The notes below the pieces were generated by a model, which ran no database searches, was not told the DNA's origin, and saw only the letters and a program-made list of their open reading frames with translations. The position numbers and the translations under genes were made by a program. Shown in pieces: positions 1-5,791 of a stretch of 5,791 nucleotides of DNA. The stretch comes from a virus: the IMG/VR virus record IMGVR_UViG_3300017753_003745, positions 1 to 5,791 of that record. One strand, given 5' to 3'. Each line of letters opens with the position of its first letter. The first letter of the stretch is position 1.

Positions 1-51
1 ACGCCAAAGCTAAGGCCTGATATTATTTCTTTAATCCACATTCTTTCGCTC
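1..51. repeat. Terminal direct repeat, copy 1 (circularisation overlap)
   Basis: acgccaaagctaaggcctgatattatttctttaatccacattctttcgctc is identical to 5741-5791. It runs through coding sequence (end of the 67-aa ORF, start of the 29-aa ORF), so it is an assembly/linearisation overlap rather than a biological repeat. Confidence 0.95.
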
Positions 52-234
52 CCAATATGAAAATATTAGGTCGGCTGCGACTGCGGCTGCAGCTATTGCA
101 CCTGTTTCAATTGCAAGTGCTGCTTCTTGCGCTACTCCCATCGTAATTAATCCGCCTGCGATCATTGATCCCACGCGCCTTAACGTTGGCTTTAGTAGCT
201 CTTTTAAAATAAATTTGTGCACATCAACTCCCAT
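31..234 (-). CDS. Small Gly/Ala-rich membrane protein (67 aa) with two predicted hydrophobic helices and a charged C-terminal tail; candidate holin/pinholin-like or pilot-associated membrane protein
   Basis: ORF track. Hydrophobic segments are VGSMIAGGLITMGVAQEAALAI and TGAIAAAAVAADLIFSYW, followed by the charged tail ERKNVD. The ATG at 234 has no clear SD. An in-frame GTG at 220-222 has GGAG (228-231) 5 nt upstream and lies 1 nt after the TGA of the upstream 73-aa ORF, so the true start may be 222. The stop overlaps the start of the downstream micro-ORF by 11 nt. Confidence 0.55.
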   Translation of the reverse strand: MGVDVHKFILKELLKPTLRRVGSMIAGGLITMGVAQEAALAIETGAIAAAAVAADLIFSYWERKNVD

Positions 235-445
235 GTTCTACACAGGACTTGTTTTGTTCTCTTAGATTCGCATAATATATATTATGAATCCGGACAAACC
301 TGTGGATGTTCTCTGTATATCTCTGATTCGTAAACATTGTCAAATTATTTTTTTGTTGCTTCAAATTTGCTTGGATTCGTTTCACTGCCATCCAGGCTAA
401 ATTTGAGTTTCCCATTGCGACCAGGGCGCATGCCTTGGTCTTCAT
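224..445 (-). CDS. Hypothetical 73-aa ORF; doubtful, may be a non-coding control region
   Basis: ORF track only. There is no SD before the ATG at 445 and no recognisable motif. It overlaps the 150-aa ORF by 101 nt and contains a promoter-like element and a 16-bp palindrome. In its favour, it is an open frame in an AT-rich stretch and its stop (224-226) abuts the possible GTG start of the next ORF. Confidence 0.25.
   Translation of the reverse strand: MKTKACALVAMGNSNLAWMAVKRIQANLKQQKNNLTMFTNQRYTENIHRFVRIHNIYYANLREQNKSCVEHGS
271..286. repeat. Perfect 16-bp AT-rich palindrome cataatatatattatg
   Basis: The sequence equals its own reverse complement (checked by hand). It lies in the least convincingly coding part of the genome and contains a CATAAT -10-like hexamer on both strands. 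Confidence 0.8.
314..343 (-). promoter_or_regulatory. Candidate sigma70-type promoter on the coding strand: TTGACA - 18 nt - TATACA
   Basis: The minus strand reads AAAAAAATAATTTGACAATGTTTACGAATCAGAGATATACAGAG. It has a perfect -35 TTGACA (338-343), an 18-nt spacer and a -10 TATACA (314-319, 4/6 match). An A-tract lies upstream. The element starts 1 nt after the TAA (345-347) of the 150-aa ORF. It could drive the small membrane ORFs, VP2 and VP1, ending at the hairpin terminator at 2971-3007. Confidence 0.35.
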
Positions 446-797
446 TACTGTTGTTATTTACACCACGGTATATATTTTTTCCTCCACTTCCGCCTCGTGC
501 CTCGTTACGGGTTGGTCTATCCTTACACCGACGCCGCAGATTTGTTTTATCTGACCTATTCTTTTCTGATAGGGGCGTTGTTATTATAGGTGCAATAATT
601 GATTGCAACCTACTTTGTATTTTTCGTACCTCAGGTGTTGCGGCGGTTCCAACCACTCCAGTCCTTCCAATACTTATAATTGGCGGACTTACGTATTTTC
701 TATTTGTTCCCGTAGCACTTCGTCGTATTTGCGTCGCGTAATTACTTTTCCGAACTGCTTTATTTGTTTTACGTGATGTTTTTCTACTTTTTGCCAT
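345..797 (-). CDS. Highly basic low-complexity protein (150 aa), overprinted on the 3' end of rep; candidate DNA-binding/packaging protein (functional analogue of phiX174 J or gokushovirus VP8, but much larger)
   Basis: ATG at 795-797 with GGAG (806-809) 8 nt upstream. The N-terminus is MAKSRKTSRKTNKAVRKSNYATQIRRSATGTNRK. By hand count there are about 35 Lys/Arg versus about 10 Asp/Glu. It is on the same strand as all other genes. The first 109 nt overlap rep in a different frame. Confidence 0.5.
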   Translation of the reverse strand: MAKSRKTSRKTNKAVRKSNYATQIRRSATGTNRKYVSPPIISIGRTGVVGTAATPEVRKIQSRLQSIIAPIITTPLSEKNRSDKTNLRRRCKDRPTRNEARGGSGGKNIYRGVNNNSNEDQGMRPGRNGKLKFSLDGSETNPSKFEATKK

Positions 798-1723
798 TCG
801 CCTTGCTCCGTATATACTTCCGCTACGTCTTTATGTTCCCATAGAATACCAGGGATACCTTTATATTCTACTTCCGTTACATCTGCCTTTGTCCAATGGT
901 CAGGTTCTACTTCTTTATCCTGCCATTTTTCGCCATATTTAACGGGCTTGTAATGTAAACGTGTCGTTTCCATTTCGACGTCGAATTCTTCGCGTCTTGT
1001 TTCATTCTCGAAATATTCTTCAAATAATTCGTTCATTGGCTCTTTTCCGTACTTTTTGTACCATCGCCATCTTATTCTTCGCATAAACATATCTTTTGTT
1101 TTGCCCTGCATACAAAAATCTTTTATTTTGTTTCTGCTATTTCGCACGTCTCTAAATTTATAAAATATATTGCGTGGCAATATCATTTCTTTTACGTGCT
1201 GTTTTGCGAGCTCTTTAAAGTATTCTTCGCCTAAAGGCGGTTTCTTGGACATAGCCAAGTGACCAACTTTAACTCGTTCGTCTTGGTCTTTCAGAACATA
1301 TTTTAATACGTACTGAAACCCTTTCCAATCTGGTTCTTGAAAATAACTAAATCCTTTAGTCCAATATTTCCAATTCACACGTTTATTGTTTTCCACTTCT
1401 GGATATTGCTTGTCAAAAAACAAGATAATATGCCAGTGCGCTCTATTTTTTTTCGTACCGTATTCTCCGGCTACTATATACCGTACTGAATATTTTTTTC
1501 TTAATCTTTTCAAAAAATCTTGTACGTCTTTGTAAACTAGCGTTGCTGCGTTTACCCCAGCTTCCCCACCGTATGTTAGTGTTGCTGCGTAAGTTCGCTT
1601 TGCAAACTTACTTTCGGCAATGCATCGACCAACGAGATCGTCAACTCTTCGTTTTCGGCATTGCCAACATTTGCGACAGCTTACTTCAACCCCATTATTC
1701 AACATCGTTGGTGTTATACACAT
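689..1723 (-). CDS. VP4: Replication initiation protein, HUH rolling-circle endonuclease (Microviridae VP4 / phiX174 gpA-like)
   Basis: Motifs read from the translation are: N-terminal MCITP...SCRKCWQCR Cys cluster, motif-1-like ATLTY, HUH motif AHWHIILF (H96/H98, about nt 1430-1438), and the double-tyrosine motif YVLKYVLKD (Y138/Y142, about nt 1298-1312). The two Tyr have the same Y-x-x-K-Y spacing as phiX174 gpA. The SD is weak, which is plausible for a low-expression Rep. Confidence 0.9.
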   Translation of the reverse strand: MCITPTMLNNGVEVSCRKCWQCRKRRVDDLVGRCIAESKFAKRTYAATLTYGGEAGVNAATLVYKDVQDFLKRLRKKYSVRYIVAGEYGTKKNRAHWHIILFFDKQYPEVENNKRVNWKYWTKGFSYFQEPDWKGFQYVLKYVLKDQDERVKVGHLAMSKKPPLGEEYFKELAKQHVKEMILPRNIFYKFRDVRNSRNKIKDFCMQGKTKDMFMRRIRWRWYKKYGKEPMNELFEEYFENETRREEFDVEMETTRLHYKPVKYGEKWQDKEVEPDHWTKADVTEVEYKGIPGILWEHKDVAEVYTEQGEWQKVEKHHVKQIKQFGKVITRRKYDEVLREQIENT

Positions 1724-1780
1724 GGGCTTGCCGTAAGCGTGTCACTAAATGCATATCCTAACAAGAGTGTGTATTCTGGG

Positions 1781-1813
1781 GCAGGGGAGTTGTACTTACG
1801 TAAACTCCCCTGC
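1781..1813. other. Strong stem-loop in the peptidase-rep intergenic region: 11-bp perfect stem gcaggggagtt / aactcccctgc
   Basis: Left arm 1781-1791, right arm 1803-1813, 11-nt loop gtacttacgta. The loop can add 3 more bp (tac/gta) around a 1-nt bulge and contains the palindrome tacgta. It begins 3 nt downstream of the peptidase stop. No T-tract follows on the coding strand, so it is not a canonical intrinsic terminator. It may be an origin, a complementary-strand priming signal or an RNA-stability hairpin. Confidence 0.75.
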
Positions 1814-1816
1814 GCG

Positions 1817-2452
1817 CTATCGTGATCGATTAGCTTCATAAACATTCTCCAAGAAAGCAAAACGAAGTCTTGTTTCTTCCGGAATCTTTATACTGTTTCC
1901 CACACAATGGTTGTAAGCTTGTCTGTATTTCTTCCAATCTTTTATCTCCCAATGTGCAGGATCCCAAAATTCCCATTCGCCGCCCCATTCAAGTTTGATG
2001 TTACGCTTCCTGGCAATTTCTTTTCCAATGGCACCTATCACGTCCCATTGTTTTTTGCTCAAATCCCACGCCTTAGTCGCGCTGATAATATCAACGGCTA
2101 AACCATACTGGTGTGGGCTTTGGCCTGCTCTTGCATTAGACCTACCTTGCGCGTGCAATTCATCTTGCCGCTCACGCGTTCTCAAAAATTCAAACGCTTT
2201 AATTGGTATACGCCTTGCTTTGCACTCTTTGTGCATCGCTTTCCAAAATTCGACTATTTGCGGGTGAACCCACATATATTCGTTTTCACTTTGGTCTATA
2301 ACAACATGAATGTTCTTATGAGCGTTTTCGTCTATTAGGTCTAAAGCAGCATCCGTATGCTTTTTATGCGCCAGTCCTTTTAAATATTGGATACGGTCTA
2401 AAAACCGTATCCACTTTAAAAAACTAAGTAGCGGCTTCACCTTCTGTAACAT
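1817..2452 (-). CDS. Zinc peptidase, M15 family (VanY / T5 endolysin-like D-Ala-D-Ala or L-Ala-D-Glu peptidase); putative endolysin
   Basis: LAS/M15 signature motifs are present: RTRERQDELHAQGRS, SPHQYGLAVD (H114-x6-D121, about nt 2090-2113) and EWGGEWEFWDPAHWE (D164/H167, about nt 1952-1963). The ATG at 2450-2452 has GGAGGA (2464-2469) 11 nt upstream and overlaps the preceding ORF by 29 nt. An alternative start at M60 (ATG 2273-2275) would give a 152-aa single-domain enzyme. Confidence 0.85.
   Translation of the reverse strand: MLQKVKPLLSFLKWIRFLDRIQYLKGLAHKKHTDAALDLIDENAHKNIHVVIDQSENEYMWVHPQIVEFWKAMHKECKARRIPIKAFEFLRTRERQDELHAQGRSNARAGQSPHQYGLAVDIISATKAWDLSKKQWDVIGAIGKEIARKRNIKLEWGGEWEFWDPAHWEIKDWKKYRQAYNHCVGNSIKIPEETRLRFAFLENVYEANRSR
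2388..2413. other. 10-bp perfect hairpin tggatacggt / accgtatcca (6-nt loop) just downstream of the 176-aa ORF stop and inside the 5' extension of the peptidase ORF
   Basis: Arms are 2388-2397 and 2404-2413, checked by hand. On the coding strand the hairpin is followed by ATATTTAAAA. It could be an attenuator or weak terminator, or a translational control element for the peptidase. Confidence 0.65.
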
Positions 2453-2954
2453 CTTCTGTTACTTCCTCCGCTACTACTGTTTTATTTGCCTGCATTTCTT
2501 TTATTTGCTGCCTCATTTCCGCAAGCTGTGTACGCTCGTCTTTCATTTGTGCATCAAAATGAGCTTTGTTTAACTTCATTATTTCCACCATTTGCCCAAA
2601 TTCTTTATTTTCGCGAATGCGTGGCTCTAAATTAACAAATTCGTCGTCCATTGTTTTTGCAACGTTTTGATCTAAATCTGGCAAATTAACCCATACCTGG
2701 GCTTTTTTGTCTGCTTTTATAAGCACCCATGAATTACTTTTTGCAGTATACTCAACCGACATCTTGTCGTCGCCACTTGCGATGAGTACTGCCTTGCTTA
2801 GATCGCTTCCCTCAACATCTGCCCATATTTCAATGGGAGAGTTCGCGATAACCTCAAACGCTACGCGTCTCGGTCTATTGCTTGGGAAGGCTATGACGTC
2901 GCCAGCATTATAATTGCTCCAATGGTCTATTACACCAACTTTAAAATGTTTCAT
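2424..2954 (-). CDS. Hypothetical structural protein (176 aa): beta-rich N-terminal half, helical/coiled-coil Gln/Lys/Glu-rich C-terminal half and acidic tail; candidate scaffolding protein (VP3-like role)
   Basis: ATG at 2952-2954 preceded by AAAGGTGATGAA (SD AGGTGA). The C-terminus DAQMKDERTQLAEMRQQIKEMQANKTVVAEEVTEDVTEGEAAT resembles a scaffold (helical plus acidic). The gene sits immediately after the capsid gene. I recognise no specific motif. Confidence 0.7.
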   Translation of the reverse strand: MKHFKVGVIDHWSNYNAGDVIAFPSNRPRRVAFEVIANSPIEIWADVEGSDLSKAVLIASGDDKMSVEYTAKSNSWVLIKADKKAQVWVNLPDLDQNVAKTMDDEFVNLEPRIRENKEFGQMVEIMKLNKAHFDAQMKDERTQLAEMRQQIKEMQANKTVVAEEVTEDVTEGEAAT

Positions 2955-2970
2955 TTCATCACCTTTTTAA

Positions 2971-3007
2971 TTTTAATAAAATGGCGGGGGAGGGAGGTTC
3001 CCCCGCC
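2971..3007 (-). terminator. Rho-independent terminator-like hairpin after the major capsid gene
   Basis: The coding strand reads GGCGGGGG-AACCTCCCT-CCCCCGCC followed by ATTTTATTAAAATT. It has an 8-bp all-G/C-rich stem (2983-2990 / 3000-3007), a 9-nt loop and a T-rich tail. It starts 10 nt after the VP1 stop. Confidence 0.7.
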
Positions 3008-3017
3008 GTTGCACTAC

Positions 3018-4700
3018 TTAGCTTTTTGTAATACGCGCTGCGTCAACTAAGTTAGTGATTGAGTCGTAGTCTGATGTCGCGTCTGCTTCTATTAAGCGAT
3101 CCCCAAACACTACGTTTGTATCGACAGTTAAATCGCTTACAGCTGTAATCTCAAAACTATCGCTTACTTGATCTGCAAAAATCTTTTTATGTAGATTTGT
3201 GCACAAGTAAAAATCGGTCGACAAACTTGGATCTGTTGTTTCATTTGTCCAAATTCTTGACCGAACCTCTGTGTATGCATCGTTAGCCGGTCTATAAAAT
3301 TTACCGCCTACATTAATCTGATCTCGATTGTATTCGTGATTTAATGGTGCATATCCTAAAGTTGCGTCTGGAGCACTATGATTAACGTCCAGGTGGTTTT
3401 TCTTAACCACTGCAACTTTTTCTGGGTCCAAACTGTCCCGTAGGGCATTTGGCAAATTATCAGTATCTGTTGTATACAAGAAATAATCTTTCTTGCGTTC
3501 CCAAACCCTCTCTGGTGCGATTTCTAAACATGTCATCACTATGCCGCCAATACTTGTCCTGGGCGCTCGCACTCTGTAACCCAATGATACAAATCCATTT
3601 GTTGCTGTATCATCTAAATTTCCACTATCGGTTGCAAACCGTTGTGAAAATCCAAACATTCCAGTTTGTGATCCAATCAACATAGGTTGTTTCATTACTT
3701 CTGTTGGTACTGTTATACCTTGCATTAACAAATCAATTATATATTCGTCGTCTATACCATCATAAGCAGCTCTTATTTTTGCAAACGCTGCCGTTTTTCT
3801 GGCTTGCTCGATGTCTGCTAAAGACATTTTAGCTCCGCCACCTTCTGTTATTTCTGCCCATAAACGGTCAAAAACCCATCCACCAGTCGATCCGTCTGGC
3901 GCAACTTGGGTAGAACTTAATTGAAATTTGTTTACATCACTTTCTGCAGGTGAATACATAGTTGACGCACCAGTTGTACTTTCGTCACCAGCTAGAAATG
4001 TTGTCCCAACACTCATAGCAGTTGACCTTAACGGTGCTTTAAATGTCAACGCGTTTAACGCTACTTCACCATCTATTAGCTTTTGATCAAAATCAGCCAT
4101 AATATGACTGTTTCCTTCGTTTGGCCAAAATGCTTCCGCAAGATCATGTTCAAATTCGTTACGCACAGCTAAACTTGTAGATCTTGCTTTTCTTCTATGG
4201 TTCACAATTGCGTTATATGCTTGCACGTAACTATTGTTCATGTCTGCTACACCATGATGTAGCCCCATAGTTCCATAAAATGTCGCTCTGCCATTATCGC
4301 CAGAATCCATATCTGTTGGAGTACTGTCTGTAACAACCGCTGAACCGTTATAATATTTATTCTTTTCAAAAAAACTTACCGGTGACCCCGCTATTCCGTT
4401 TTCTTTGCTATAACTTCTATTTAATTCATCTATTGACCCGTTAAACTGGTCAAATGCTAAATAGGGTACAAAATATGTGCATGCTTTCGCCACAATAGCG
4501 TTCACTGGCTTTTCTGATGTTTCCATCATTTCCACTGATACATTTACATTTCCGCTGAAACCTTCTTCGCGTAATATTGGATCTGCTTTAATCGGTAATA
4601 TCTTACCCGCATCCCCTGACGTTAATACACGTCCTTTGCTCATACGTCTTGTGCGCTGAAAGCTCACTGGGACGTTAGGTATCATTTCTGTATTTCTCAT
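3018..4700 (-). CDS. VP1: Major capsid protein (Microviridae VP1 / phiX174 F-like)
   Basis: This is the largest ORF (560 aa), the usual size for VP1. The N-terminal pattern (VSFQRTRRMSKGR...GKILPIKADPILREEGF...TYFVPYLAF) resembles the conserved start of F/VP1 jelly-roll proteins as I recall them. A purine-rich SD AGGAGAAG (4707-4714) lies upstream and a terminator downstream. The pilot and Rep gene context also fits. Confidence 0.85.
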   Translation of the reverse strand: MRNTEMIPNVPVSFQRTRRMSKGRVLTSGDAGKILPIKADPILREEGFSGNVNVSVEMMETSEKPVNAIVAKACTYFVPYLAFDQFNGSIDELNRSYSKENGIAGSPVSFFEKNKYYNGSAVVTDSTPTDMDSGDNGRATFYGTMGLHHGVADMNNSYVQAYNAIVNHRRKARSTSLAVRNEFEHDLAEAFWPNEGNSHIMADFDQKLIDGEVALNALTFKAPLRSTAMSVGTTFLAGDESTTGASTMYSPAESDVNKFQLSSTQVAPDGSTGGWVFDRLWAEITEGGGAKMSLADIEQARKTAAFAKIRAAYDGIDDEYIIDLLMQGITVPTEVMKQPMLIGSQTGMFGFSQRFATDSGNLDDTATNGFVSLGYRVRAPRTSIGGIVMTCLEIAPERVWERKKDYFLYTTDTDNLPNALRDSLDPEKVAVVKKNHLDVNHSAPDATLGYAPLNHEYNRDQINVGGKFYRPANDAYTEVRSRIWTNETTDPSLSTDFYLCTNLHKKIFADQVSDSFEITAVSDLTVDTNVVFGDRLIEADATSDYDSITNLVDAARITKS

Positions 4701-4764: not shown

Positions 4765-5691
4765 TCAATACGCACCGCGCATTTCACCCCTTTTCTGAGG
4801 TCCTTTCAAAGTTGTTACTGTTACTGGTGGTAAAAATTGTTTAGTTTTTCTTCTTCTGTTTCTAGAAAAATTTGCTGTACTTTCGTTGCTCATCAAAACC
4901 ATCGCTGTTTTTCTAGCGTCTGCTATTGCAACTCCCAGTCCAACCAACGAGCCAACAATATCTCCATATCGTTCCTCGTAATCTTCAACATTTGAAAAAT
5001 TTTCATCAATTTCCACGTCAGCACCGGCAAATTTTAAATCCAACGCTTCGTCGTCATAATTTCCGCGTGCTATTTCACTATTTATACTTTTTACCTGGGC
5101 TAATATTAAACTTTTATTTAACTCATCCATTCTACTTTCGTGAGAATAATTTTGTTGTCTTGTAAATTCCGCTAAACCTACATTTACGCCTGTTTCCAAT
5201 CCCGCTGCGATTGGATTTCTTGACAGGGTAGGGGTTGCATAAACCCCGTCCATCATAACACTTTGTGCCATTGTTCCTGCTACGGCTGTGCCGTATGCGC
5301 TACCGCCGCCGGCCCTTAACGCTGTTAAAGGGTTAATCCCTGCCTTTTGTGCGTCTTTTACCAAATTATCATAATAATTTTCACGCACTCCTGTATTGTA
5401 TTCTCTGCTTTCAACAACTTCTTTTTTATTACGTTCGTATACTCTTTCGCTTTCCGCTTTGTTTGCAGCCAACACCCTTGTGTTTTCTTTTTTAGCATCA
5501 TTTCTTGTTAAAATTGCGCCTGCCGTACTTGCTGCACTTGATGCCAAGGCCACTTTTGTGCCTGCACTTAATTTTCCTATTACACCCGCAGCTGCGGGAC
5601 CCATTGTTGCTATTGCTGCACCCCCTATAATTGCTTCTACAGGGTTTTTTATTATAGGACGTAATATTTTACGTTCGATCCATTTGAACAT
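4765..5691 (-). CDS. VP2: Minor capsid / DNA pilot protein (VP2 / phiX174 H-like)
   Basis: 308 aa. It has a Gly/Ala-rich hydrophobic N-terminus (AIIGGAAIATMGPAAAGVIGKLSAG), a central AGINPLTAL motif typical of microvirus VP2/H proteins as I recall them, a helical middle and a basic C-terminus. GGAG (5698-5701) lies 6 nt upstream of the ATG. The start abuts the stop of the micro-ORF (TAAATG). Confidence 0.75.
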   Translation of the reverse strand: MFKWIERKILRPIIKNPVEAIIGGAAIATMGPAAAGVIGKLSAGTKVALASSAASTAGAILTRNDAKKENTRVLAANKAESERVYERNKKEVVESREYNTGVRENYYDNLVKDAQKAGINPLTALRAGGGSAYGTAVAGTMAQSVMMDGVYATPTLSRNPIAAGLETGVNVGLAEFTRQQNYSHESRMDELNKSLILAQVKSINSEIARGNYDDEALDLKFAGADVEIDENFSNVEDYEERYGDIVGSLVGLGVAIADARKTAMVLMSNESTANFSRNRRRKTKQFLPPVTVTTLKGPQKRGEMRGAY

Positions 5692-5781
5692 TTATATCTC
5701 CATAATTATCGGTAATACGAACAAAATAAATCCGCCTATTACGCCAAAGCTAAGGCCTGATATTATTTCTTTAATCCACAT
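5692..5781 (-). CDS. 29-aa single-pass hydrophobic micro-ORF MWIKEIISGLSFGVIGGFILFVLPIIMEI (not in the ORF track)
   Basis: Hand translation of the minus strand gives ATG at 5779-5781 (= 39-41) and TAA at 5692-5694, directly followed by the VP2 ATG. A strong SD GGGAG lies 7 nt upstream (seen at 49-53; truncated at the window end in the second copy). The start overlaps the 67-aa ORF stop by 11 nt. There is one clear TM-length hydrophobic stretch. Confidence 0.45.
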   Translation of the reverse strand: MWIKEIISGLSFGVIGGFILFVLPIIMEI

Positions 5782-5791
5782 TCTTTCGCTC
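5741..5791. repeat. Terminal direct repeat, copy 2 (circularisation overlap)
   Basis: Base-for-base identical to 1-51 when read by eye. Confidence 0.95.

Follow-up and report, generated by a model that had tools for sequence, protein, structure and literature searches.

A predicted M15C endolysin and a conserved hairpin inside its gene in a microvirus assigned to the Occultatumvirinae

In phiX174, lysis depends on a single gene, whose product, the small membrane protein E (an "amurin"), blocks MraY and does not act enzymatically on the cell wall (PMC3394797). Since 2012 it has been known that many microviruses outside the phiX174 group encode a peptidase or amidase that degrades the wall, in the interval from capsid to Rep. 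M15 peptidases were described in microviruses by Roux et al. in 2012 (PMC3394797). Kirchberger et al. further found that Families 2, 7, and 14 conserve lysis-associated accessory genes in the interval from VP1 to VP4, and that the order is VP1-peptidase/amidase-VP4-VP2 in Families 7 and 14 (PMC9239249). Related microviral M15 enzymes have been assigned to lysis (PMC11499846, PMC9239249, PMC9512667, PMC3394797), and isolates of the Occultatumvirinae clade lyse their hosts (PMC11499846, PMC9512667). Homologues are deposited as "M15 family metallopeptidase" or "endolysin protein". The sole microviral cell-wall hydrolase verified by zymogram is Gp7 of Ebor, a Rhodobacter microvirus of the Tainavirinae (PMC11980548). 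In agreement with an earlier note on the present DNA, our literature search found no biochemical test of a microviral M15 enzyme: no activity, lysis phenotype, or localization had been measured for any microviral M15 homologue found. That note had also called M15 peptidases sporadic among microviruses. Instead, the gene is a published, GenBank-annotated hallmark of the clade, situated between capsid and Rep. The predicted M15 endolysin described here is ordinary, its gene and position having already been described across a marine and soil microvirus group. For the Occultatumvirinae, such a peptidase is a textbook-level annotation, and finding it adds little in itself.

The DNA analyzed here (the window) is a stretch of 5,791 nt. 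Because it carries a 51-nt terminal direct repeat (1-51 = 5741-5791), the genome was taken to be a 5,740-nt circle, into which the window closes. The genes that the analysis concerns are as follows.

5692..5781, minus strand: 29-aa membrane peptide with a single helix, whose gene immediately precedes that of the pilot protein (Kyte-Doolittle 19-residue mean 2.32)
3018..4700, minus strand: major capsid protein, 560 aa, which places the genome in its clade
2424..2954, minus strand: 176-aa gene with an acidic C-terminus (ORF), which adjoins the peptidase upstream and overlaps its start
1817..2452, minus strand: zinc peptidase gene of M15 (LAS) type, coding for 211 aa from an ATG start, with the stop codon included; predicted endolysin
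689..1723, minus strand: Rep initiator (VP4/A-type), directly downstream of the peptidase (Pfam and PHROG)
31..234, minus strand: 67-aa predicted two-helix membrane protein, candidate holin-type partner (Kyte-Doolittle 19-residue mean 1.81)

Capsid matches and gene order assign the genome to the Occultatumvirinae, as a presumably Alphaproteobacteria-infecting microvirus, the capsid grouping being one by best database matches. The capsid protein was 57% identical over 100% of its length to that of the Roseobacter phage CRPss-151, and 38-43% identical to those of the Tortoise, Flyfo, and Rhizobium microviruses. All 71 of its matches in the phage database were to Roseobacter CRPss, Tortoise, Flyfo, Rhizobium, Ciona-associated, Rattus, or ICBM5 microviruses. 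It had no Pfam match and, among PHROG families, matched only phrog_514, a generic major head protein family, at E=2e-6; the term gokushovirus-like used for this phage in the earlier note was therefore imprecise. The nearest IMG/VR genomes showed 90-94% nucleotide identity.

On the minus strand the genes are arranged in the order 29-aa gene, VP2, capsid, 176-aa gene, peptidase, Rep, basic protein, and 67-aa gene. The order capsid, 176-aa gene, peptidase, and Rep is common to the Roseobacter, Rhizobium, Tortoise, and Flyfo microviruses, and was also observed in a prophage within a 167-kb Rhodobacteraceae contig. Similarly, the order of pilot, capsid, peptidase, and Rep genes agrees with that reported for the Occultatumvirinae (PMC11499846, PMC9239249). 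Rep matched Pfam REP_ORF2-G2P (E=4.4e-17) and PHROG 942 (E=3e-37). Orthologues of the 176-aa gene were found in all 13 relatives compared, at the same position in the GenBank relatives, with dN/dS of 0.05-0.20 against the 10 relatives with unsaturated dS. Its protein matched no family in Pfam, PHROG, or NCBIfam, and the NCBIfam search gave no match for any protein of the genome.

Next, we analyzed the peptidase, whose gene occupies 11.1% of the 5,740-nt circle, close to the figure of about 11% given before. Its motifs lie where they had been noted: RTRERQ at residues 91-96, SPHQYGLAVD at 112-121, WGGEW at 156-160, and DPAHWE at 164-169. The protein is divided as follows.

2276..2452, minus strand: N-terminal extension, residues 1-59, clade-specific, with three predicted helices (predicted secondary structure)
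1928..2275, minus strand: catalytic core, residues 60-175 (conservation, PDB alignment, and structure match)
2111-2113, 2090-2092, and 1952-1954, minus strand: predicted Zn ligands H114, D121, and H167, respectively (invariance and PDB alignment)
1961-1963, minus strand: predicted catalytic acid D164 (in D-P-A-H, three residues before H167)
1817..1927, minus strand: C-terminal extension, residues 176-211, clade-specific, with two helices predicted in the model, plus the stop codon

The profile search proposed for this gene placed it above the cut-off of 25 bits for both Pfam Peptidase_M15_4 (E=9.9e-9, 36.1 bits) and VanY (E=3.8e-6, 27.1 bits), and PHROG 465, "endolysin", matched at E=3.3e-22. 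Sequence matches in the PDB were 8q2g (E=7.5e-11), 23ri, 6akv, 5opz, and 2vo9. Among 29 homologues, R91, Q96, H114, D121, W156, G157, G158, D164, and H167 were invariant, and the H/D/D/H set aligned residue for residue with 8q2g, 23ri, and 6akv. The catalytic signature that the earlier note had read thus held for H114, D121, D164, and H167. The final Glu of its D-x-x-H-x-E part, E169, alternates with Gln among the 29 homologues, indicating that it is not a conserved ligand.

The AlphaFold model of the peptidase (pLDDT 91.3, pTM 0.82) was matched by Foldseek with probability 1.0 to 8q2g, 5opz, 2vo9, and 6akv at target TM-scores of 0.58-0.74, the score of 0.74 being reached over ~124 residues. 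Hedgehog N-domains ranked lower in the list. As modeled, the peptidase has the Hedgehog/DD-peptidase fold, and the comparison of structures that had been suggested returned the L-Ala-D-Glu endopeptidases LysECD7, ChiX, and Ply500. Together with the Pfam scores and the invariant catalytic set, the model upholds the earlier identification of a canonical M15/LAS zinc peptidase in a microvirus. By its closest sequence and structure relatives, the enzyme belongs to subfamily M15C: all five top PDB matches in the sequence search, and all five in the structure search, are L-Ala-D-Glu endopeptidases, and VanY and LdcB enzymes rank behind with E-values 100- to 1000-fold worse. Since the nearest characterized relatives cut L-Ala-D-Glu, this is most likely the bond cleaved.

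Selection was then compared along the protein. Against 10 related genomes, dN/dS of the peptidase was 0.03-0.13, less than the same genome pairs gave for capsid and Rep. The two extensions, which make up about 40% of the protein and are without counterpart in solved M15 enzymes, were constrained as much as the core. The C-terminal extension was modeled at pLDDT 94-97 with dN/dS of 0.02-0.18; neither the 180-aa CRPss-151 enzyme nor the solved M15C structures have it. Residues 11-59 gave dN/dS of 0-0.16, and residues 26-59 gave 0-0.06. Purifying selection is strong over all 211 residues. A search of Pfam and PHROG with the extensions gave no match, including to any cell-wall-binding domain.

The first 29 nt of the peptidase gene overlap the end of the upstream 176-aa gene, and Met codons stand at residues 1, 60, and 73. 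A 152-aa form starting at M60, raised earlier beside the 211-aa form, is a correct reading of the sequence but not of the product: M60 is Met in the closest relatives only, and purifying selection acts on residues 11-59, including those beyond the hairpin described below. GGAGG is located upstream of the first ATG and not of M60. Because the extensions are under strong purifying selection, the 211-aa form was taken as the product. No signal or membrane segment was found in it; the maximal Kyte-Doolittle 19-residue mean was 0.46, and charged residues occur throughout the N-terminus, so that hydropathy rules out a signal peptide, a SAR anchor, or a membrane helix. We also considered an amphipathic, membrane-active N-terminal helix. 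Its moment of 0.41 was reached by 956 of 5000 shuffled sequences (19%), and the candidate was not supported.

We consider it probable that the 211-aa protein is the phage's endolysin, a soluble M15C zinc metallopeptidase made in the cytoplasm, which would act in lysis with a holin-type export partner. The enzyme would reach the periplasm late in infection and would cleave stem peptides in the host's peptidoglycan, with L-Ala-D-Glu as the likeliest bond, upon which the Gram-negative host cell, of Rhodobacteraceae type, would burst and release the virions. Because the peptidase has no membrane or signal-anchor segment, an export partner would be needed. Export would then rely on a membrane protein of the phage, and the best candidate is the 67-aa two-helix protein, either alone or together with the 29-aa peptide. 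Peptidase expression may be low or delayed, since a terminator-like hairpin follows the capsid gene and a further hairpin lies in the first 75 nt of the peptidase gene. Muralytic lysis, the role favored by the earlier note, is the best reading of the gene, and we infer it beside the modeled fold and the observed residue set, selection, lack of a signal or anchor, and fixed position in the clade. The accompanying proposal of horizontal transfer applies at most to a distant ancestor; within the clade the position is fixed, and peptidase identity roughly tracks capsid identity.

The two small membrane proteins are plausible holin-type partners. The 67-aa gene showed dN/dS of 0.06-0.25, and its family is recognizable in CRPss-151, CRPss-251, and the Tortoise, Flyfo, and Rhizobium microviruses. 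With a family HMM it was detected in 49 of 52 near-complete genomes that carry the peptidase and not in the one peptidase-less genome, a single negative of almost no statistical power; a scan of IMG/VR with the capsid of the peptidase-less CRPss-154 found no relatives. Subgroups 6 and 7 of the Occultatumvirinae are likewise without the peptidase (PMC11499846). The gene is not adjacent to the peptidase. In the sense of transcription it lies about 1.6 kb past the peptidase stop, with the Rep and basic-protein genes in between, and is the first gene of the next transcription unit, preceded by a conserved TTGACA promoter-like site. The start of the 29-aa gene overlaps the end of the 67-aa gene by 11 nt on the circle. 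The 29-aa peptide is kept in close relatives (dN/dS 0.06-0.30), and CRPss-251 has an annotated 29-aa CDS in the corresponding position. Neither protein matched a holin family in Pfam, PHROG, or NCBIfam. In a read-through of the ORF translations, no small lipobox-bearing ORF was present on the coding strand, and no spanin was identified. In a phage of eight or nine genes, the 67-aa and 29-aa proteins are specific candidates for moving a signal-less enzyme through the inner membrane.

Alternatively, the peptidase could be a virion-associated entry enzyme, packaged in a few copies, which opens the peptidoglycan locally while the pilot protein delivers the genome. We regard this as quite unlikely. 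Packaging might occur via a cationic N-terminal helix that binds ssDNA or the capsid interior, and residues 1-30, which lie in a predicted helix, do have a net charge of +6; the strong constraint on the clade-specific extensions would also suit such a role. However, phiX174-type microviruses cross the wall by a pilot-protein tube without a hydrolase, and we know of no place in a T=1 capsid for a globular enzyme of 25 kDa. Support for packaging comes from the Ebor amidase Gp7, which was detected in purified virions (PMC11980548), although only in trace amounts and with a different fold. Against it, the nearest characterized relatives are all endolysins or lysis-type enzymes, and lysis is the role given to the gene by those who deposited or described related genomes (PMC11499846).

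Lysis without a holin is more improbable still. Here the cationic N-terminal helix, or slow membrane damage caused by infection, would give the enzyme access to the wall, and the small membrane proteins would serve otherwise, for example by aiding the pilot protein or in superinfection exclusion. Consistent with this, the 67-aa gene adjoins the pilot-protein gene and not the peptidase in every genome examined, its product resembles no holin family, and ICBM5 and two other peptidase-carrying genomes gave no match to the family HMM. Nevertheless, the amphipathicity of the N-terminal helix did not exceed that of shuffled controls, the peptidase has no SAR-like or signal segment to bring it through the membrane, and the sole genome without the peptidase is also without the 67-aa family. 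That the gene is an assembly chimera, the possibility which would have undone the earlier note, or a decayed passenger has a negligible chance of being right: the same context occurs in more than 50 independent assemblies, relatives of six isolates, and one prophage, GC content and strand skews run continuously across the gene in a window that closes into a circle, and its low dN/dS speaks against decay.

Returning to the proposed endolysin, we analyzed the hairpins in and around its gene.

2983..3007, minus strand: GC-rich hairpin with ATTTTATT behind it, located past the capsid gene and ahead of both the 176-aa gene and the peptidase (terminator scan)
2378..2423, minus strand: hairpin within codons 10-25 of the peptidase gene, right behind the TAG that ends the 176-aa gene (inverted repeat and fold)
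1781..1813, minus strand: strong hairpin immediately after the peptidase stop, without a following T-run (fold)

The hairpin in codons 10-25 is a fresher result than the peptidase itself. It is the longest inverted repeat of the window (dG -19.4 kcal/mol, z -6.3), and its core is an 11-bp stem at 2388-2413 (TGGATACGGTT / GACCGTATCCA) that closes a 4-nt loop and is itself enclosed by an AT-rich outer stem. Across 13 genomes the core stem was 99.3% paired; one pair, made of two third-codon positions, is GC in six genomes, CG in four, and AU in three. The hairpin is kept in 50 distinct sequences, nine others have a shifted 15-bp hairpin instead; such rebuilding from a different sequence, 8 nt further downstream, marks one subclade. 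Compensatory changes are mostly synonymous, and conservation extends over about 60 distinct sequences. No Rfam family was matched.

Several functions were considered for this hairpin. For a programmed -1 frameshift, TTTTTTA (2423-2417) is located in register 3 nt before the hairpin, but it is conserved in close relatives only, and the -1 frame stops after about 18 codons. A XerCD/dif-type attachment site was also rejected; the arms are without the inner AT repeats of dif, and prophages keep VP2-VP1-peptidase-VP4 with an intact peptidase (PMC11499846, and the Rhodobacteraceae prophage). A classical intrinsic terminator is unlikely, as no T-run follows the hairpin in any lineage. The hairpin at 2983..3007 (dG -20.7 kcal/mol, z -4.3) looks like an intrinsic terminator and is kept in relatives with compensatory changes. 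The hairpin at 1781..1813 is the most stable local fold of the sense strand (-23.5 kcal/mol, z -5.7). It is likewise kept in relatives with compensatory changes, and at this site two distant relatives carry a hairpin with another sequence.

It is possible, if rather doubtful, that the phage runs a complete, regulated holin-endolysin program, made up of a promoter-led 67-aa protein, a lysin encoded last in the structural block behind the terminator-like hairpin, and a dual-coding N-terminal hairpin. The N-terminal extension would then serve both as protein and as nucleic-acid structure, with the hairpin setting the dose or timing of the lysin. Alternatively, the hairpin could be a complementary-strand origin of the packaged DNA situated inside a coding region. 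For small ssDNA phages, a conserved hairpin in a coding sequence could be relevant to when lysis occurs or to how the DNA replicates.

Finally, we compared the locus with known systems. The M15 enzymes of the Occultatumvirinae (Roseobacter phages CRPss-151/152/153/155/251, Rhizobium phages RHph_TM32 and RHph_X92, and the Tortoise and Flyfo microviruses) belong to the same protein family, with 52% identity to the CRPss-152 enzyme and 31-54% to the others. They occupy the same slot, after the capsid gene and a gene of ~176 aa that overlaps the peptidase start and before Rep, and their genomes share a two-helix membrane protein of ~65 aa upstream of the pilot gene. Published work gives these enzymes the same role as well (PMC11499846, PMC9512667, PMC9239249). 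The present enzyme is longer, with 211 aa against 166-180 aa in most of these relatives, mainly because of the 36-residue C-terminal extension, which is common to the nearer relatives only. From the nearest IMG/VR genomes the window differs at 6-10% of nucleotides and not in kind.

The M15C enzymes LysECD7 (8q2g), EndoRB49 (23ri), EndoT5 (2mxz), Ply500 (2vo9), LysB4 (6akv), and Serratia ChiX (5opz) share the predicted fold and the H-x6-D ... D-x-x-H set, at 24-28% identity over about 120 residues. The peptidase resembles the T5 and ECD7 enzymes in having one catalytic domain and no signal sequence, and in being directed at a presumed Gram-negative host. Unlike the M15C enzymes, however, the protein has helical extensions of 59 aa at the N-terminus and 36 aa at the C-terminus, and its query TM-score against them was only 0.43-0.46 because 40% of the model is unmatched.

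Ebor Gp7 occupies the same slot between capsid and Rep and presumably plays the same role, and Ebor, like the present genome, has a small membrane protein (Gp1, 45 aa) upstream of its pilot gene. Gp7 is an N-acetylmuramoyl-L-alanine amidase of T7-lysozyme/PGRP type (1aro, E=3.6e-18; PHROG 822, amidase). Homology to the peptidase was rejected, since the two show no sequence similarity and the fold and chemistry of Gp7 are unrelated. Protein E of phiX174 serves microviral lysis, as the peptidase is proposed to do here, but by the opposite mechanism, the present phage relying on a predicted wall-degrading enzyme.

The window carries an exact 51-nt terminal direct repeat (positions 1-51 equal 5741-5791), indicating that it is a closed circular assembly with a genome of 5,740 nt. 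All plausible genes in the ORF listing were on the minus strand, and they are given here in order of transcription.

5781-5692, minus strand: 29-aa membrane peptide
5691-4765, minus strand: 308-aa pilot-type protein, with weak PHROG 'pilot protein' matches
4700-3018, minus strand: major capsid protein, 560 aa
2954-2424, minus strand: 176-aa protein, function not assigned
2452-1817, minus strand: peptidase, 211 aa
1723-689, minus strand: replication initiator (Rep), 344 aa, Pfam REP_ORF2-G2P, E=4.4e-17
797-345, minus strand: basic protein, its gene sharing sequence with the Rep 3' end
234-31, minus strand: 67-aa membrane protein

At the circle junction, the 29-aa ORF start and the 67-aa ORF end share 11 nt.

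The peptidase had been recognized in an earlier note as a canonical M15 enzyme, and the ORF and all the motifs named there exist: RTRERQ (residues 91-96), SPHQYGLAVD (112-121), WGGEW (156-160), and DPAHWE (164-169). Profile searches confirmed the family, as Pfam Peptidase_M15_4 and VanY matched with 36.1 and 27.1 bits (curated cut-off 25 each), and PHROG 465 'endolysin' was matched at E=3.3e-22. The best solved-structure relatives by sequence were L-Ala-D-Glu endopeptidases, with LysECD7 (8q2g, E=7.5e-11) at the top; EndoRB49 (23ri), LysB4 (6akv), ChiX (5opz), and Ply500 (2vo9) were further such relatives. An AlphaFold model with 29 homologues as input was confident (pLDDT 91.3, pTM 0.82). The structure comparison that the note had proposed agreed: the same endopeptidases ranked first in Foldseek with probability 1.0 (target TM-score of 0.74 for 8q2g), ahead of VanY/LdcB carboxypeptidases, with Hedgehog N-domains lower still, an order in keeping with the LAS fold. 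In the 29 homologues, R91, Q96, H114, D121, W156, G157, G158, D164, and H167 were invariant. Thus, the Asp and His of the proposed D-x-x-H-x-E motif stand, but its E169 alternates with Q and is outside the conserved set. The assignment of the peptidase to M15 is solid.

Next, the selective constraint on the gene was analyzed against ten related genomes. The pairwise dN/dS of the peptidase was 0.03-0.13, which was lower than those of the capsid (0.07-0.18) and Rep (0.10-0.22) genes. By region, the values were as follows.

Residues 11-59, N-terminal extension: dN/dS 0-0.16
Residues 26-59, N-terminal extension outside the hairpin inside the gene: dN/dS 0-0.06
Residues 60-175, catalytic core: dN/dS 0.03-0.13
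Residues 176-211, C-terminal extension: dN/dS 0.02-0.18

The low dN/dS in every region indicates that the entire 211-aa protein is translated and constrained. A 152-aa form starting at M60, which had also been suggested, is unsupported as a conserved product, because residue 60 is Met in the closest relatives only, residues 11-59 are constrained, and a conserved GGAGG precedes the first ATG. The extensions, predicted to form three N-terminal and two C-terminal helices, together make up about 40% of the peptidase. Both are without counterpart in solved M15 enzymes, with a query TM-score of only 0.43-0.46, and searches with the extensions gave no family match.

The capsid protein matched 71 phage records, all Alphaproteobacteria-associated or gut-derived microviruses. 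Among them were the Roseobacter phages CRPss-151 to -251, which gave the highest identity (57%, full length), as well as ICBM5 and the Tortoise, Flyfo, and Rhizobium microviruses; the CRPss phages have been placed in Occultatumvirinae (PMC11499846). The peptidase search returned the same phage set (52% identity to CRPss-152), in which depositors label the homologues 'M15 family metallopeptidase' or 'endolysin protein'. One and the same arrangement was seen in CRPss-151, CRPss-251, RHph_TM32, RHph_X92, Flyfo Tbat2_105, and Tortoise microvirus 81, namely, capsid, a ~175-210-aa gene with its end overlapping the peptidase start, peptidase, and Rep. IMG/VR also holds genomes 90-94% nucleotide-identical to the window over almost the full length, whose peptidases are 96-98% identical to that of the window, and the exact protein occurs on an independent Logan contig. 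Furthermore, a prophage with VP2, capsid, 176-aa gene, peptidase homologue, and Rep was found in a Rhodobacteraceae contig of 167 kb, with metabolic genes of the bacterium on both sides, which points to Rhodobacteraceae-type hosts. Base composition and skews are continuous across the peptidase gene. The relatives, the Logan contig, and the prophage, together with this continuity, therefore exclude the assembly chimera that the earlier note had considered. In CRPss-154, a Roseobacter phage without the peptidase, a protein of 191 aa (5145-5720) that matched no family fills the slot between a 167-aa gene and Rep, and an HNH endonuclease is present instead of the 67-aa membrane-protein family.

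M15 peptidases with a proposed endolysin role were described in gokusho- and alpaviruses by Roux et al. in 2012 (PMC3394797). Kirchberger et al. reported that Families 7 and 14 have their genes arranged as VP1-peptidase/amidase-VP4-VP2 (PMC9239249), and capsid, Rep, and endolysin form the basic gene set of Rhizobium microviruses (PMC9512667). In 2024, most Occultatumvirinae genomes were reported to carry the peptidase, as were prophages with the order VP2-VP1-peptidase-VP4 (PMC11499846). These reports place the finding as first stated among those of a known kind. Peptidoglycan degradation has been demonstrated for only one microviral hydrolase, phage Ebor Gp7 (PMC11980548), a T7-lysozyme-type amidase that showed no similarity to the window's peptidase in our comparison. 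The earlier remark that the role of microviral M15 enzymes is uncharacterised holds for the M15 type, for which the literature search returned no assay. Since the gene is a described and annotated clade hallmark and near-identical genomes are public, the interest of the finding as stated is low. What interest remains is modest: it concerns the enzyme itself and the constraint on its extensions, the membrane proteins that are candidate partners, and the hairpin within the coding sequence.

A muralytic role is the best interpretation of the peptidase. Its core is nearest to M15C enzymes, and judging from these it would cut the stem peptide at the L-Ala-D-Glu bond, which occurs in the peptidoglycan of Gram-negative Alphaproteobacteria. 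No hydrophobic segment was found in the peptidase (maximum 19-residue hydropathy 0.46), and the amphipathicity of its cationic N-terminal helix was not significant, indicating that reaching the wall requires assistance. Two hydrophobic helices are present in the 67-aa protein (hydropathy 1.81, dN/dS 0.06-0.25) and one in the 29-aa peptide (hydropathy 2.32, dN/dS 0.06-0.30); both are real genes. Roseobacter, Rhizobium, Tortoise, and Flyfo microviruses share the 67-aa pattern, in which P-x-x-R-R-x-G is followed by helix 1, an acidic loop, a second helix whose Asp is conserved, and a basic tail. The family HMM matched 49 of the 52 peptidase-carrying near-complete genomes and was absent from the sole peptidase-less one, CRPss-154, a single negative case. 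This fits, without proving, a candidate holin-type partner of the peptidase. The 67-aa gene adjoins the pilot gene, not the peptidase; the protein matched no holin family, and no spanin candidate was found among the window ORFs.

Just upstream of the 67-aa gene, TTGACA with a TATACA-like -10 element ~18 nt downstream was observed at 335-343 (minus strand). TTGACA is present in every relative examined, including distant ones. The pair of elements is a likely promoter of the 67-aa, 29-aa, pilot, and capsid block; the consensus promoter scan did not pick it up, owing to the -10 rule of the scan. The nearby 73-aa ORF (224-445, minus strand) is probably not a gene, as it lies mostly inside a window-specific insertion and has no orthologue in relatives. 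The basic protein gene (345-797, minus strand), positioned like Ebor Gp10, has a dN/dS of about 0.5-1. In close relatives, it encodes 115 aa with a conserved C-terminal ...PWC(KK) motif, preceded by Y-I there and by F-V in CRPss-151 and two other relative genomes (L005 and L012). In the window, a 1-nt deletion in an A-run around 477 shifts the frame and, with a 106-nt insertion (349-454), yields a 150-aa ORF whose tail is not conserved; either misassembly or a defective variant may account for this.

The three most stable local sense-strand folds each follow the stop codon of one of three consecutive genes.

2983-3007, minus strand: hairpin after the capsid stop, then T-run ATTTTATT, terminator-like
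2378-2423, minus strand: hairpin after the stop of the 176-aa gene, inside the peptidase gene
1781-1813, minus strand: hairpin after the peptidase stop, with no T-run

The first and last exceed every other hairpin of the genome in stability, and all three show conservation with compensatory changes. The motif GTTAGGATATGCATTTAGTGA (1742-1762, minus strand), in the stretch that separates the post-peptidase hairpin from the Rep start, is a candidate for a replication origin or for the Rep promoter; close relatives and the relative genomes L010 and L012 also have TATGCATTTAGTGA or a near variant of it, and the CRPss-151 stretch examined has only the GTTAGGAT start.

The hairpin at 2378-2423 is the longest inverted repeat of the window, begins directly 3' of the TAG of the 176-aa gene, spans peptidase codons 10-25, and folds at -19.4 kcal/mol (z = -6.3). 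Across 13 genomes with 49-98% peptidase identity, 99.3% of the cells of its 11-bp core stem were paired. One pair joins two third-codon positions, of Ile/Val (ATA/ATC/GTG) and Arg (CGT/CGG/CGC), and was seen as G-C (6), C-G (4), and A-U (3); all three types occur even among genomes >90% identical to each other. Among 59 distinct IMG/VR and GenBank sequences, 50 had 9 or more of the 11 pairs still in the original register. The other nine encode W-V-K-F-L-D-R-V and have lost the original stem; they form a perfect 15-bp hairpin 8 nt further downstream, with its own covarying pairs. Strong hairpins were also predicted in the first 20-70 nt of the gene in the distant, GC-rich genomes CRPss-251, Tortoise 81, RHph_X92, and RHph_TM32. 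The compensatory third-codon changes and the shifted hairpin therefore indicate that conservation of the 'WIRFLDRI' peptide is partly a nucleic-acid constraint. The G-U wobbles of the hairpin favour folding of the sense strand. It may act as RNA, lowering or delaying lysin expression, or as DNA in the packaged strand. A dif-type site was considered and rejected. The -1 frameshift-like heptamer T TTT TTA (2417-2423, minus strand), in the peptidase register three nt before the hairpin, was rejected as a signal, being confined to the closest relatives.

In phiX174, genes are followed by leaky terminators and stabilising stem-loops, which the hairpin series of the window appears to resemble. Similarly, the series is reminiscent of hairpins that roodoodooviruses conserve between their Cap and Rep genes; for these, a complementary-strand origin has been proposed and left open (PMC9865509).
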